This document shows, one piece after another, positions 1,689 to 30,766 of a stretch of DNA of 64,000 nt. The translations under genes were made by a program, and so were the position numbers. The notes beneath the pieces are model-generated. The model made no database searches, was not told the origin of the DNA, and was given only the letters and a program-made list of their open reading frames with translations. The stretch comes from a virus (lineage: Duplodnaviria; Caudoviricetes): positions 1 to 64,000 of the IMG/VR virus record IMGVR_UViG_3300036546_000109, one strand, 5' to 3'. How positions within the stretch are numbered: the stretch's first letter is position 1; each line of letters begins with the position of its first letter.

Positions 1689-3050
1689 TTATTTCTCCTC
1701 AATGTAGCAGAACTTATCATTGCCCATCACTTCCTTATAGGCTTCTCTCATATACTGCATAACCCTCTCTTTGACTTCCTGCTTCACAATAACGCTATCA
1801 TGCTCTGGAAGCAAGGGTTCTTTTTCACAAATCAGTCGGTTAATCACATCGGCGATAATCTCACTGTCAAGATACTGGAGCTGCACACCTCTATCACTGA
1901 AGAAGTGGTGAGCTATTGGTTTATTGTGGGCTACAACAGCCTGACACACAGTGTGCCCCGGAAAGCGATCAGAGACATATAAACCAAAGAATTTAGAATC
2001 TTTCTCTTGATCTGTCCCCCACATCTCTTTGTCTCTAACCACCTCGCCAGTGACTTGCGTGAATGCACCACGATAGCTGTCTTCGTTCAAGCACACCATC
2101 AATGAGTGCTTACACAAATTCCTGATTGGATCATAAGTAGGCTTGTCATACTTCTCCCTGAAATAATTCACTTTACTCTGGTCAACTTCAAGGAACGGCA
2201 TCTTGGCACCATAAGGGTTGTATATCCCACCCCATTCATCTTCAATCCAAGAATCAATAACATCCGCATTAAATTCATATTCCTCTTCATACAAAAGAGA
2301 TGCGTGCATTGCTTTGAAGTCAAGCTCTGCTACAGGACTACCATCTAATTCCAATTTCTTTCTCTCATCGCTGTTCATAACCTGCACACCTCCGACAGTG
2401 TTGTAATGCCGACCACCAAAACCAATCTTATCCGAAAACACGCGCTTGTATTGCTGTGCTGAATAGACAAGGCTTCCTTTGGTAATCGTTGTGTTTTGCA
2501 AAATAGTGTTGAATGCTTCCATGTACGCACCAATCTTCTTGACGCCGGTATGCCCTCTCGTCGATTTTAGTGTTCCCGACGAACGATCTTTAATTTCCAC
2601 AAGCGGGAGTGGATCAACCTCATCTGACACATCTACACCAAAGAAAAGAGATAACCAAGCCTCTTTGAACATGCAAAGAGAGCCTACCATTACACCTTCT
2701 TTCCAGTCAGCAATACCGCCTATGAGTAGATCAACGTACCCACCAGTTTCAAGGATATCCAACAAAGCCACCATACGTTTATGAGAAATCTTCTGAGGAT
2801 TCCCTTTGTACGGGGCAAAGTCTCTAGGTACAGACAGACCAATGGCTCTGTACTTGATAGCACGAGCTGTGTTGGTGATTAGAGCAAGAATCTCTTTTCT
2901 GTAACCAAAGCCTATCTCATCCTCTAGCTTGGTAAGGATGTGCTTATACTTAGACCTCTGGTTGTAGTGGATATTGAAGTGAGTGGTAGTGGATTGTATT
3001 TCACTTCTTTCTCTCTTCTCTAATCTCCATAAATCTCTCTTCATCCACAC
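1689..3050 (-). CDS. family-A / T7-RNAP-like palm-domain protein (TV-Pol-like), paralogue 1
   Basis: GGRHY, ELDFKAMH (motif A Asp), RNLCK (motif B-like), LQYLDS, LPEHDS (motif C His-Asp); no exonuclease domain seen. Confidence 0.6.
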   Translation of the reverse strand: MWMKRDLWRLEKRERSEIQSTTTHFNIHYNQRSKYKHILTKLEDEIGFGYRKEILALITNTARAIKYRAIGLSVPRDFAPYKGNPQKISHKRMVALLDILETGGYVDLLIGGIADWKEGVMVGSLCMFKEAWLSLFFGVDVSDEVDPLPLVEIKDRSSGTLKSTRGHTGVKKIGAYMEAFNTILQNTTITKGSLVYSAQQYKRVFSDKIGFGGRHYNTVGGVQVMNSDERKKLELDGSPVAELDFKAMHASLLYEEEYEFNADVIDSWIEDEWGGIYNPYGAKMPFLEVDQSKVNYFREKYDKPTYDPIRNLCKHSLMVCLNEDSYRGAFTQVTGEVVRDKEMWGTDQEKDSKFFGLYVSDRFPGHTVCQAVVAHNKPIAHHFFSDRGVQLQYLDSEIIADVINRLICEKEPLLPEHDSVIVKQEVKERVMQYMREAYKEVMGNDKFCYIEEK

Positions 3051-3157
3051 CTCATTACAAGATAGTCAACCATAATACCCCTCTAAGCCCCGTGGCACTA
3101 AGGCTGGAGCGTTTTCATTCTCAAATGTTAAGAGCTGTTCTTTGCTCTGGTCTACCA

Positions 3158-3187
3158 ATAGTAACCCCACATCTCCCATCCTGTCAA
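3158..3187 (-). promoter_or_regulatory. sigma70-like promoter for the polymerase-palm gene
   Basis: TTGACA-N18-TACTAT. Confidence 0.6.
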
Positions 3188-3222
3188 CACACAAAACAAA
3201 TAAATTTTCTTGAAGAAATTGC

Positions 3223-3252
3223 TTGACGTGCAGGAGCAAAGGGATGTATTCT
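3223..3252 (+). promoter_or_regulatory. sigma70-like promoter, divergent from the previous one
   Basis: TTGACG-N18-TATTCT. Confidence 0.55.
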
Positions 3253-3285
3253 TCTCCTAGATGTTCAATAAAGAGGAGAGATGGA

Positions 3286-3471
3286 ATGAAAGATTACGGA
3301 CTACCCAAAGCAATTCCTCCTGTAGAGGTTAAGTGCTTTGCTGATGTGTTTGAGAATATGATTCGTGAGTTCGGTGTTGTAAACGCTTGTGAATGGTTTG
3401 GTCACCAATCAGACAGTGAATTTACGAAAGAGACAATTGCAGTCCTTCTGGAGAGGAGTGGGTTGAAATGA
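3286..3471 (+). CDS. hypothetical protein
   Basis: GAGGAG RBS before ATG 3286 (start adjusted from the ORF track). Confidence 0.6.
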   Translation: MKDYGLPKAIPPVEVKCFADVFENMIREFGVVNACEWFGHQSDSEFTKETIAVLLERSGLK

Positions 3472-3623
3472 AAGAACACCTTACAGAGGGTGGATGGGAG
3501 TGGTATCTGAGGCAGCTAAAAGAAAAGCTTGAACGTCCCTTGACGCAGAAAGAATACTCAGACATAATGAGGCTCTACATCGTTGGAACACCTGTTGATA
3601 AGACATTGGAGAAATTGAAATGA
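3468..3623 (+). CDS. small hypothetical protein, 51 aa
   Basis: ATGA overlaps at both ends; manually translated. Confidence 0.55.
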   Translation: MKEHLTEGGWEWYLRQLKEKLERPLTQKEYSDIMRLYIVGTPVDKTLEKLK

Positions 3624-4057
3624 CAATTGAAACACTGAATGAAATTAAAGCTGATGCTACAGCTCTACGCGCTGGCCTGCTTGATATGGCGGATAAGGTT
3701 AGTCTGGTTGAGGCGGAAGGGGTGGTGGTGCCAGCAGATGTGGATGTTGCTCTAGATGCAATTCTTGTTAATCTGGGTACTGTCCTCAGTTGGGTCGAGC
3801 AAGCTCTGCAAGCAATTACAGACGGAACGGAGGAACCAACTATTACTGCAATGCAAGCGTTTCTGAATGAGCTTAAGGCTGTCTTTGATAAATACTCTGC
3901 TGTATTTGAACGAATTGATGGTAGTGCTTACGGAACCAGCTACGGTGGTGCAGATTTCTTCCGTGTCACTGTAACAGACCCTGTTTCTGGAGATGTAGAG
4001 ACAAAAGATATTGTTCCTGCTGTAGCTGATACAATTACTTCAGCAGATTTGGTGTAA
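3620..4057 (+). CDS. hypothetical protein
   Basis: 145 aa ORF, GGAG RBS. Confidence 0.7.
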   Translation: MTIETLNEIKADATALRAGLLDMADKVSLVEAEGVVVPADVDVALDAILVNLGTVLSWVEQALQAITDGTEEPTITAMQAFLNELKAVFDKYSAVFERIDGSAYGTSYGGADFFRVTVTDPVSGDVETKDIVPAVADTITSADLV

Positions 4058-28644: not shown

Positions 28645-28887
28645 TTACACAATTTTGGGATGTGTCTCACACTGCATCTTAACATCATACCCACGGCCAT
28701 CAAGTTTAAGCAACTTTTTACCTGTATCTACCCATATGTAGCCGTATTCTTTCTTGTGAAAGCTGCACATATACGGGCCTTCCGCATAAACTCCCGCGCC
28801 CTTCTTTAGCCAGTAATTGCACATACCCATTTGTTCGTTGGTCAGCCACTCGGCGTCAAGTTTTTCAATCTGAGACATGGTTTTCAT
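28645..28887 (-). CDS. hypothetical protein
   Basis: GGAG RBS. Confidence 0.6.
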   Translation of the reverse strand: MKTMSQIEKLDAEWLTNEQMGMCNYWLKKGAGVYAEGPYMCSFHKKEYGYIWVDTGKKLLKLDGRGYDVKMQCETHPKIV

Positions 28888-28955
28888 TTCGCAACTCCGG
28901 TCGGTTTATGGTTATTAGTATAGACTTGACATTTGCTTGTGTATAATTGGAATTT

Positions 28956-30566
28956 TTAATCGCCACATAAAGCTGATAAGATTTTCTCAATGACAGGAAC
29001 TGTCCAACCATTTCCCAATACCCTATATCGCTGATTATCTGATATTCCCGCAGTGTACCCATCATACAGGCTCAGAGATAAACAGGCTTTCCCCGTTTGC
29101 ATTGGAATGTATCCAGTAATGACACTCTCTGCAAACCAGTAGCAAATTCTCAAAATCTGATCTGTACTCTTCATAGATAAACGGGACAATGTGGTGAATG
29201 TGGAACTGCTGTCCATCATCATGTTCAAAATGGATTCCGCATCGTTGACATGTAGCATTGTCTCGTTTCCAAACAAATTTAATTGCATCTTTCCAAGTGT
29301 CTGTTGAGTAAAAAGACTGTCTTTCTGAGGTAACTCCCCCCTTCCAATTTGCGCTATTTTCCCCTCTATTATACAAATAGAAACACCCTGAACTACAGAA
29401 ACCTCCCCTGTTCTTTGAAAGAGGCACGGTTGTTTCTGTTCCGCACTGTCTGCACTCAAAAACTGTTCTATTTGTTGGTTGCGAGGCTTTGTTTGTAGCG
29501 GTATCCCCATACCTACACTTTCTGGAGCAGTATATTTTGTTAGCAGAAACTTTTGATGAGTATTGTACCCCACAGCCTTTACAAACTCTTGTAGTTCTGT
29601 TTCTTCTACATTCAAAACAAGTTTTAGCAACTTGGGATTTTTCTTTACCACACTTACAAAGTTCTTTGCTTGGTCTAAACATGTAAAAATTTCTACCTCT
29701 TTCTTAATAAATCCAAAACCCTGCGCCCTTTCGCACTCGATCGGTGTAAACTTTCTACGTTCTCCGTTTTCCTTTTCAACTAGGAAATTATGCTGCCAAC
29801 TGCTTGTAGTAATACAAGGCATTTTGTCCACTAATCGAGTACCGCCTTTGTTATAACCTCTCGGCCAAGTCCACACCCCTTTATAATCTTTATCTTCCAA
29901 AATGTCTACAATCTTTGGCGAATGTTCCAAATCTTTTATATCTTTTTCGCCGTAAGTTGTTGTTTGCAGGAACGAGGACCAGTAGTAACGCTCTCGATTT
30001 TGAGCCGTAAAAGCCCTTGAATTAATTTTTACCGGCCAAGTCTTAAGATGGTGTGTTATTACGTCTTCAAATTCCGCACGCATTTTTACATTCTCGAGTA
30101 GAAAATCAACGCTTCCTTGGTAATCCTCAATTTCTTTTTTAATCCTCACGAACTCAAAGAATAGTGCAGATCGAGGGTCATTGAAATTCAATTCACTCCC
30201 AGCAAAGCTAAAGCCCTGGCAAGGTGAACCTGCCAAAATAAGGTCAACCTTCTGGTAGTAATTCTCGTCCCCCAATCGCCATTTACCATTTTCAGACTCA
30301 ATATAATTTCCACTAATTTTAACTGTCCGAACGTCACCAAGCCGAATGATATCAGGATGATTTTTCTCGCTAATCTTAATTGCGTTTGGTTCAATTTCTG
30401 AGGCAAAATACTTTATATTACTAAATCCAAGATTTTTAAGCGCTTGCAAACCACAGCTTATACCGTCAAATAAGCTAATAACTACGATTTCACGGGATAG
30501 CAGGTTTTGTTTGTTTGTTTCAAAACAACTAATATTCTCTAAAAATTCACACTCAAATCGACTCAC
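28956..30566 (-). CDS. dcm: C5 cytosine DNA methyltransferase carrying a 217-codon in-frame insertion between motifs IX and X
   Basis: FDGISCG (I), GSPCQ (IV), ENV (VI), QNRER (VIII), FTPIECERAQGF (IX) ... DGYT..YRVLGNGWTVPV (X). Confidence 0.9.
   Translation of the reverse strand: MSRFECEFLENISCFETNKQNLLSREIVVISLFDGISCGLQALKNLGFSNIKYFASEIEPNAIKISEKNHPDIIRLGDVRTVKISGNYIESENGKWRLGDENYYQKVDLILAGSPCQGFSFAGSELNFNDPRSALFFEFVRIKKEIEDYQGSVDFLLENVKMRAEFEDVITHHLKTWPVKINSRAFTAQNRERYYWSSFLQTTTYGEKDIKDLEHSPKIVDILEDKDYKGVWTWPRGYNKGGTRLVDKMPCITTSSWQHNFLVEKENGERRKFTPIECERAQGFGFIKKEVEIFTCLDQAKNFVSVVKKNPKLLKLVLNVEETELQEFVKAVGYNTHQKFLLTKYTAPESVGMGIPLQTKPRNQQIEQFLSADSAEQKQPCLFQRTGEVSVVQGVSICIIEGKIAQIGRGELPQKDSLFTQQTLGKMQLNLFGNETMLHVNDAESILNMMMDSSSTFTTLSRLSMKSTDQILRICYWFAESVITGYIPMQTGKACLSLSLYDGYTAGISDNQRYRVLGNGWTVPVIEKILSALCGD
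29062..29682 (-). mobile_element. Zn-finger HNH homing endonuclease gene nested out of frame inside the C5 MTase
   Basis: Multiple CxxC/YCSxxC repeats, GENSANWKGG, RDNATCQRCG..HIHHI..NLLLVCRECH; GAGGT upstream of the ATG. Confidence 0.88.
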
Positions 30567-30766
30567 AATAATCCTCCCACTGTAAACAATTTATCTTCAA
30601 AATCTTTAAGGGCTTGGAGATATCCCTTGTCCTCATCATCTTGGGATGGACAGCCCTCCCAATGCTTCAAATGCTGCACAAGAGCGCTATAACCAAGCTT
30701 TATTGCATATTCACAATCCTCGACTCCCAATTGATACCCTTCGTTGTATTCTGTAGAGGTTTTCAT
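30563..30766 (-). CDS. hypothetical protein
   Basis: 67 aa, TAGG RBS. Confidence 0.6.
   Translation of the reverse strand: MKTSTEYNEGYQLGVEDCEYAIKLGYSALVQHLKHWEGCPSQDDEDKGYLQALKDFEDKLFTVGGLL

Follow-up and report, generated by a model that had tools for sequence, protein, structure and literature searches.

How can a selfish nuclease gene sit inside a useful gene and leave that gene readable from its start to its stop? Homing endonuclease genes are thought to persist in useful genes by means of introns, inteins or gene splitting. The question is raised by a locus in a 64,000-nucleotide (nt) stretch of DNA from a virus of the Caudoviricetes (IMG/VR record IMGVR_UViG_3300036546_000109, positions 1 to 64,000; the whole stretch is called the window), in which an open reading frame (ORF) for a C5 DNA methyltransferase (MTase) encloses, in another frame, a complete ORF for a zinc-finger HNH endonuclease. 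The locus probably represents a selfish homing-type HNH gene that has settled out of frame in a phage C5 MTase gene, with the host being translated through the insert. A dual-coding insertion in which the host frame is deliberately left open had been proposed from the window alone, without database searches (the sequence-only reading), and this proposal is supported by relatives, since selection on the frame is seen across at least eight lineages and at a fixed site. The design itself is already published, so that it is not another, new strategy, as had been supposed: the ShiLan domain is a 202-amino-acid (aa) insertion in mycobacteriophage DNA methylases with a stop-free host frame (Arsenault, Gosselin and Gogarten, Genes 2025, PMC11855218), and an insertion in gp60 of Pacc40 is the second published case (PMC11855218).

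The long ORF belongs to the DNA_methylase family (PF00145, 4.5e-28, residues 29–226; Pfam) and carries the MTase motifs I (LFDGISCG), IV (PCQ), VI (ENV), VIII (QNRERYYW), IX and X (GNGW), all in order and in columns that are invariant in homologue alignments of 15 and 38 sequences. Between ...ECERAQGF of motif IX and DGYT... of motif X lie exactly 217 extra codons in the MTase frame, whereas empty-site homologues read QG-LPDD(H/Y)T at the same point, i.e. the family has one residue there; 35 MTase codons remain 3′ of the insert (Table 1). The inner ORF begins at offset 884 of the MTase gene, and thus in a different frame, and is an HNH protein by Pfam (PF01844, 3.7e-10), while a profile of its family matches HNH domains in the PDB (6me0_C, 6e-10; 5h0m_A, 2e-5). 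Two N-terminal Cys4 zinc ribbons are followed by the C-terminal HNH motif. The HNH ORF covers 621 of the 651 nt of the insert, and its TGA straddles the host codons TAT-GAT, where the MTase resumes. The sequence-only reading had described this arrangement, namely both ORFs on the minus strand in different frames, the six motifs, the insert in place of a single residue, the GAGGT ahead of the HNH ATG and the position of the TGA, and all of it was recovered from the ORF list, the sequence itself, Pfam and the alignment with homologues.

Two observations concern the 5′ end of the host gene. The GTG of the MTase overlaps the TGA of a 67-aa ORF upstream (GTGA; window 30563–30577), which together with the GGAGG ahead of it suggests that the MTase is translationally coupled to this ORF. 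Furthermore, the first 300 nt of the gene (window 30267–30566) are 100% identical to positions 81–380 of the empty allele L106, which spans 81–1043 and comes from another sample, and beyond them the identity drops to 66–83%, marking a sharp within-gene recombination boundary.

A protein search with the 536-aa query returns long ORFs only and is therefore biased to open frames. It found occupied alleles that are 86% identical (544–545 aa), empty alleles that are 86–93% identical in protein (318–320 aa), and many MTases of 34–47% identity that align over ~95% of the query and have a homologous insert at the equivalent position, with a recognisably similar insert peptide in the host frame. In the DNA of three distant carriers (a prophage region of a Gilliamella metagenome-assembled genome (MAG) and two metagenome contigs) the HNH ORF is 209–210 aa long, starts with MFRPSKELC and keeps the same relative frame. 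For a census that is blind to the frame, an HNH alignment was used to fetch DNA from viral and genome collections, so that retrieval was independent of the state of the host frame. This yielded 25 loci with near-full-length HNH relatives (43–60% identical, plus the window's own phage), and in 24 of them the HNH ORF lies inside a C5 MTase gene at the same site, with the HNH+1 frame stop-free across it. HNH+1 is the host frame in all 24 carriers, whose host ORFs (344–892 codons) are open far past the HNH ORF on both sides. Where a regular expression found both flanks, motif IX (ECERLQGFP or ECERLQT) stands on one side and motif X on the other; the two motifs share one frame with no intervening stop in 21 of the 24, and the remaining three have an open host frame. 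Eleven codons separate QGF or QT[VL] from the HNH start in most carriers. Nearly all carriers have an intact HNH ORF, and carriers that are 39–47% identical keep all catalytic MTase motifs invariant. The exception among the 25 loci is L026, a free-standing relative (37% identical). Divergent copies thus keep both frames at the same site, relatives with an empty site exist, and the frequent host-frame stops in homologous inserts that the sequence-only reading had named as counterevidence are not seen in the 24 carriers.

Members of the HNH lineage come from uncultured phages and from MAG contigs that bear the labels of several bacterial phyla. When the 536-aa protein and two HNH proteins were compared by tblastn with 50,697 phage records, no cultured phage with the element was found, and a DNA search of cultured phages gave short motif-IV matches only, none with the insert. 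The window stretch itself was found in DNA-labelled metagenome runs (shale gas, wastewater, sludge), and small shares of it in RNA-labelled runs, which are probably DNA. In a more distant relative, L062, the HNH ORF (2240–2800) lies out of frame in a 674-codon N6_N4 methylase ORF (1956–3977; PF01555, 7.7e-35), directly after the SPPY motif, and the host frame is again HNH+1 and stop-free, so that this locus looks like a second host family of the same design. By contrast, P0124 (57% identical, 259 aa, with a NUMOD4-like N-terminal extension) stands on its own immediately behind a family A DNA polymerase gene, which indicates that the lineage is not confined to methylase genes.

The insert bears the marks of mobility. 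In the window and in L109, both of which are occupied, it is 95% identical in DNA, whereas the exons are 74% and 67% identical, with sharp boundaries. The HNH identity exceeds the exon identity in most carrier pairs (e.g. 59% versus 23%, and 81% versus 46%), and empty and occupied alleles coexist among close relatives. Such conservation of the insert, together with the coexistence of empty and occupied alleles, is what marks a homing element that targets a conserved site. As judged from these alignments, the insert moves horizontally; MTases that differ greatly share it, with site and relative frame unchanged, and it is better conserved than they are. That carriers conserve motif X had been considered as proof of enzyme activity, a view that was downgraded, since transfer is frequent and most exon divergence may predate invasion.

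Does the open host frame reflect selection, or does it arise by chance from the HNH ORF's composition? For the copy in the window chance would suffice: synonymous shuffles of its HNH ORF leave the MTase frame open in 19% of cases (P = 0.19), with 1.4 stops expected, and the third frame has 22 stops. The caution of the sequence-only reading that a single open frame is weak evidence was therefore well placed, and the question was settled on the relatives. Under synonymous shuffling the probability of an open frame ranges from 0 to 0.21 per sequence and its log10 sums to -38 over 22 sequences, while a conservative joint P, obtained by clustering the sequences at 65% HNH identity and multiplying the highest P values of the 8 clusters, is 1e-11.6. 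None of the 24 embedded relatives has a stop in this frame, whereas in the control, 60 more distant relatives of the free-standing type, every 100 codons contain on average 4.1 stops in +1 and 7.0 in +2; a single one of the 60 is stop-free in +1, and this is L062, itself embedded. The free-standing L026 has 7 stops in its +1 frame. Chance is thereby refuted at the level of the family and retains a negligible probability. Composition does explain why the +1 frame is easy to keep open, because a stop in it needs a T at HNH codon position 2, and the HNH proteins contain few Leu, Ile, Val and Met residues (13%; in the HNH domain 15%, versus 18% in free-standing relatives). At the family level the comparison is decisive, indicating that selection keeps the host frame stop-free across at least eight independent lineages. 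A constant insert length modulo 3 was rejected as independent evidence, since indels within the HNH ORF are multiples of three anyway.

Damaged copies tell which of the two genes the open frame goes with. The MTase of L111 retains little of its upstream part and carries a frameshift in motif X; the HNH ORF there is undamaged at 211 aa, and 2 stops are present in what used to be the host frame. In L110 (2150–3200 of an 88-kb contig; HNH 78% identical) the upstream part of the MTase and the first ~40 HNH codons are deleted, leaving a 166-aa HNH ORF followed by a decaying motif X (GNCW). Conversely, L023 has a nonsense codon in the HNH ORF and a host frame that is open over 854 codons, and in L025 the first zinc ribbon of the HNH protein is deleted and the host frame is open. 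Taken together, the four copies indicate that the open frame goes with an intact host and not with an intact nuclease. At the L111 locus (2300–3300) motif I is joined almost directly to the insert; an N6_N4 methylase just upstream, for which two ORFs (114 and 128 aa) are called, may be broken.

These copies also bear on the view that the MTase is dead in carriers, and that the frame is open to avoid Rho-dependent polarity, or because host-frame translation holds the mRNA open or stable for expression of the HNH ORF. Phage orphan methylases are indeed often dispensable (PMC11855218), and with frequent transfer the conservation of the exons need not reflect selection in the occupied state. However, both visibly broken MTases also show decay of motif X, whereas the stop-free joining of motifs IX and X (21 of 24 carriers, with the host frame open in the other three) and the invariance of the catalytic motifs at 39–47% identity are the rule among the others. 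In addition, so few codons follow the insert that a stop near its end would hardly increase polarity, yet no stop occurs anywhere in it. A dead enzyme is thus unlikely.

What is selected within the insert can be read from the codon positions of the HNH ORF. Nucleotide identity in the codon alignment is 0.615, 0.671 and 0.487 at positions 1, 2 and 3, respectively, and the pattern, with position 3 being most variable, indicates that the HNH frame is the one under protein selection. The peptide read in the host frame is 32.7% identical, compared with 28.8% expected as a by-product of HNH conservation, and on this measure the passenger appears to be constrained mainly to be stop-free. For a prediction by AlphaFold2 (AF2), the input was an alignment comprising 38 carriers and empty alleles. 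The predicted local distance difference test score (pLDDT) is 85–95 over most of the upstream part of the MTase core and 77–94 in the downstream part, and falls to 22–35 over residues 320–467 of the insert and below 50 also at residues 488–500, while strands are predicted at the two ends of the insert (287–295 and 494–502). The model is only suggestive, and would fit a passenger that forms a mostly disordered loop on a short stalk.

An alternative is that the 217 residues are absent from the mature enzyme, being removed by an unrecognised device, e.g. a compact or novel ribozyme overlapping the ORF, non-canonical protein splicing or ribosomal bypass. The search for such devices was negative throughout, in line with the sequence-only reading, which had seen neither intron nor intein. 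Rfam gave no intron in the window at E<=10 and none at the gathering score in 20 carrier loci, no ribozyme core was detected in the insert, which has 33 nt outside the HNH ORF, and RNAalifold on 18 divergent inserts with their flanks found 13 pairs at -5.2 kcal/mol over 773 columns, i.e. no conserved fold. On the protein level, Pfam recognises PF00145 only and no Hint domain in the 536-aa protein, and the junctions across carriers have no Cys or Ser at the start and no His-Asn before Cys, Ser or Thr at the end; instead, the residue just past QGF or QT[VL] is G, L, P, T or S, and the junction of insert end and host varies (Y|D, I|D, N|D, S|K, V|E and others). Contigs of the sequencing runs are uninformative on splicing, with no joint across the insert among them: in a 930-nt contig from a relative, downstream exon, insert and upstream exon follow one another without a break, which is no test of splicing, and an RNA-library contig that matches 29507–29657 exactly is no proof of transcription.

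Removal would agree with the highly conserved site of the insert, as is seen with introns and inteins, with the pairing of the two insert ends by AF2, and with a host-frame peptide slightly above the by-product expectation (0.327 versus 0.288), although this small excess may reflect sequence relatedness; removal at the protein level would likewise need an open frame. By contrast, RNA splicing needs none, so that the strong selection for an open frame is hard to reconcile with it, and inteins require nucleophiles and a terminal Asn that the variable junctions do not offer. The ribosomal bypass in T4 gene 60 spans 50 nt, a distance far exceeded by 651 nt. The authors of the ShiLan study leave splicing formally open (PMC11855218). 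On balance removal is very unlikely here, and the same applies to the broader idea of a passenger that is not inert, whether it were lost by an undescribed process acting on RNA, protein or ribosome, or functional in the MTase as a read-through peptide.

The nuclease and the methylase could also form a cooperating unit, e.g. in competition between phages, in which the nuclease has been domesticated or the loop has gained a role; a compact nuclease-plus-methylase unit had been offered as an option by the sequence-only reading. The association with methylases does recur across families (C5 here, N6_N4 in L062, ShiLan and Pacc40), and the nuclease is kept intact in nearly all carriers. Nevertheless, presence and absence among near-identical hosts and an insert conserved far above its host are marks of a selfish element, copies decay (the nonsense codon in L023, the N-terminal deletion in L025), the free-standing P0124 resides away from methylases, and the passenger sequence is barely constrained. 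Specific support for cooperation was not found, and it is quite unlikely.

For the selfish HNH gene with a host translated through it, the following course can be proposed. The mobile unit is minimal, consisting of a 33-nt leader with a ribosome-binding site and then the HNH ORF, the stop of which uses the first host codon after the insert. Ribosomes would translate the MTase straight through the insert to give a 536-aa enzyme, in which ~217 largely disordered residues would hang from a surface loop on a short β-hairpin stalk, leaving the enzyme functional. Internal initiation at the ATG of the HNH ORF would separately yield the nuclease, which would then cleave empty alleles of co-infecting relatives, and the element would be copied into them during repair. 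Both a stable, active 536-aa protein and cleavage by the HNH protein are what we infer from the sequences. With regard to initiation, GGAG, GGAGG or GAGG is present at the equivalent place in L001, L003, L008, L010 and L089, whereas a second lineage group (e.g. L012–L018; it includes Bacteroidales MAG contigs) is without this Shine-Dalgarno-like site.

Several points weigh against this course. A ribosome-binding site at 12 nt from the HNH ATG is rather far, and one lineage group has none. The disorder predicted by AF2 is only suggestive where the alignment is shaped by the constraints of another frame. Since transfer is frequent, the conservation of motif X may largely predate each invasion, and something other than enzyme activity could be what keeps the frame open.

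The closest known system is ShiLan, which was first noted in 2023 (PMC9957025). The ShiLan insert hides a 195-aa HNH ORF in another frame, with its start 18 nt in and its stop within the last four bases, has no detectable intron or intein and is predicted to form a hairpin-like loop (PMC11855218). Both systems thus share a ~200-codon insert that occupies a conserved position in a phage DNA methylase and leaves the host frame stop-free, a zinc-finger HNH ORF in the other frame that fills nearly the whole insert (starting 33 nt in here), the lack of a recognisable intron or intein, a disjunct distribution among related phages, and a low-confidence AF2 loop or hairpin apart from the enzyme. They differ in domain order, as the HNH motif is C-terminal after two zinc ribbons here and central in ShiLan, and in the start, which is an ATG here, with a Shine-Dalgarno site in one lineage group, and a GTG with proposed leaderless initiation in ShiLan. 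The host here is a C5 MTase and the site is the motif IX/X loop, whereas the methylase class of ShiLan is not established from the papers; the spread also differs, with uncultured phages and MAG contigs of several phyla here and ~ten mycobacteriophages for ShiLan. Tblastn of two family members against the 50,697 phage records gave no Mycobacterium phage among the matches listed, in a collection for which the presence of a ShiLan record is unconfirmed. On the basis of these matches and the domain order, with no ShiLan sequence aligned, the present HNH family is treated as a separate lineage of the ShiLan kind. Relative to the published work (PMC11855218), the C5 MTase host with its motif IX/X site, the broad spread and the formal evidence of frame selection are new, as are the natural decay controls and the compositional reason for the use of the +1 frame.

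Other nuclease genes resident in coding regions resemble the element in part. Like group I introns with HNH genes, it is an HNH homing-type gene that interrupts a phage gene at a conserved position and is polymorphic for presence and absence; unlike them, it has no ribozyme core, Rfam match or conserved fold, and its host frame is selected to be open, which would be needless with splicing. I-HmuI, the HNH homing endonuclease of a group I intron within Bacillus phage SPO1's DNA polymerase gene, is an example of such intron-borne enzymes. Another is I-PfoP3I (PMC3428280). With inteins that contain a homing endonuclease, the element shares the in-frame insertion at a conserved site and one continuous host ORF, but its nuclease is encoded in another frame, and neither a Hint fold nor splicing residues at either junction are present. 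In Aeromonas phage Aeh1, mobE is a free-standing homing endonuclease gene that splits the host gene nrdA. Both there and here an endonuclease gene without intron or intein lies in a host coding region, and host function is retained in the mobE/nrdA case, where two ORFs give products that reassemble, whereas here a single host ORF is read through the nuclease gene.

Table 1. Positions in the window of the methyltransferase gene, the insert and the associated signals.
Feature	Position	Strand	Details
C5 DNA methyltransferase ORF	28956-30566	minus	536 codons (ORF list and sequence)
MTase upstream part, motifs I-IX	29715..30566	minus	GTG start at 30566-30564
MTase downstream part (DGYT...QRY..GNGWTVPV, motif X, stop)	28956..29063	minus	In frame with the upstream part
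GGAGG ribosome-binding site	30573..30577	minus	6 nt before the MTase GTG
Mobile insert	29064..29714	minus	651 nt = 217 MTase-frame codons, stop-free; boundaries from the alignment of occupied and empty alleles
HNH endonuclease ORF	29062..29682	minus	206 aa, one base behind the MTase frame
GAGGT, Shine-Dalgarno-like	29695..29699	minus	12 nt before the HNH ATG, within the 33-nt insert leader
Empty-allele site			Sequence ...CAAGGTTTRCCAGATGAY...

A 66-aa ORF in the third frame (28865–29065, minus strand), which overlaps the HNH stop by ATGA and extends beyond the MTase stop, was considered as a feature of the family and rejected: the corresponding open stretch in 23 other carriers measures 7–92 codons and has no conserved start, so that this ORF is probably no gene. 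In L012 two tRNA genes (3244–3389) lie directly 3′ of the occupied MTase gene. A further set of C5 MTases of 550–890 aa (P0051, P0077–P0087 and others) aligns over about half of the 536-aa query and contains other domains, i.e. PF13403 (Hint_2, an intein domain) in P0051 and PF23571 in several; insertions of a different type may be present in these members of the gene family.

Beside introns, inteins and gene splitting, the element stands for a fourth route by which a homing endonuclease gene may persist in a useful gene, with the nuclease gene in another frame and the host translated through it. Published from ~ten mycobacteriophages, this route appears from the present comparison to be widespread and maintained by selection. 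Since gene callers report the long ORF only, nuclease genes of this kind are invisible in protein databases and annotations. The lineage supplies natural matched pairs of empty and occupied alleles together with decay controls, and through it both the function of an enzyme with ~200 unselected loop residues and the translation of an ORF inside a translated ORF would be testable. Its main value would thus be that of a well-controlled system for the tolerance of an enzyme towards a selfish gene that is translated through.

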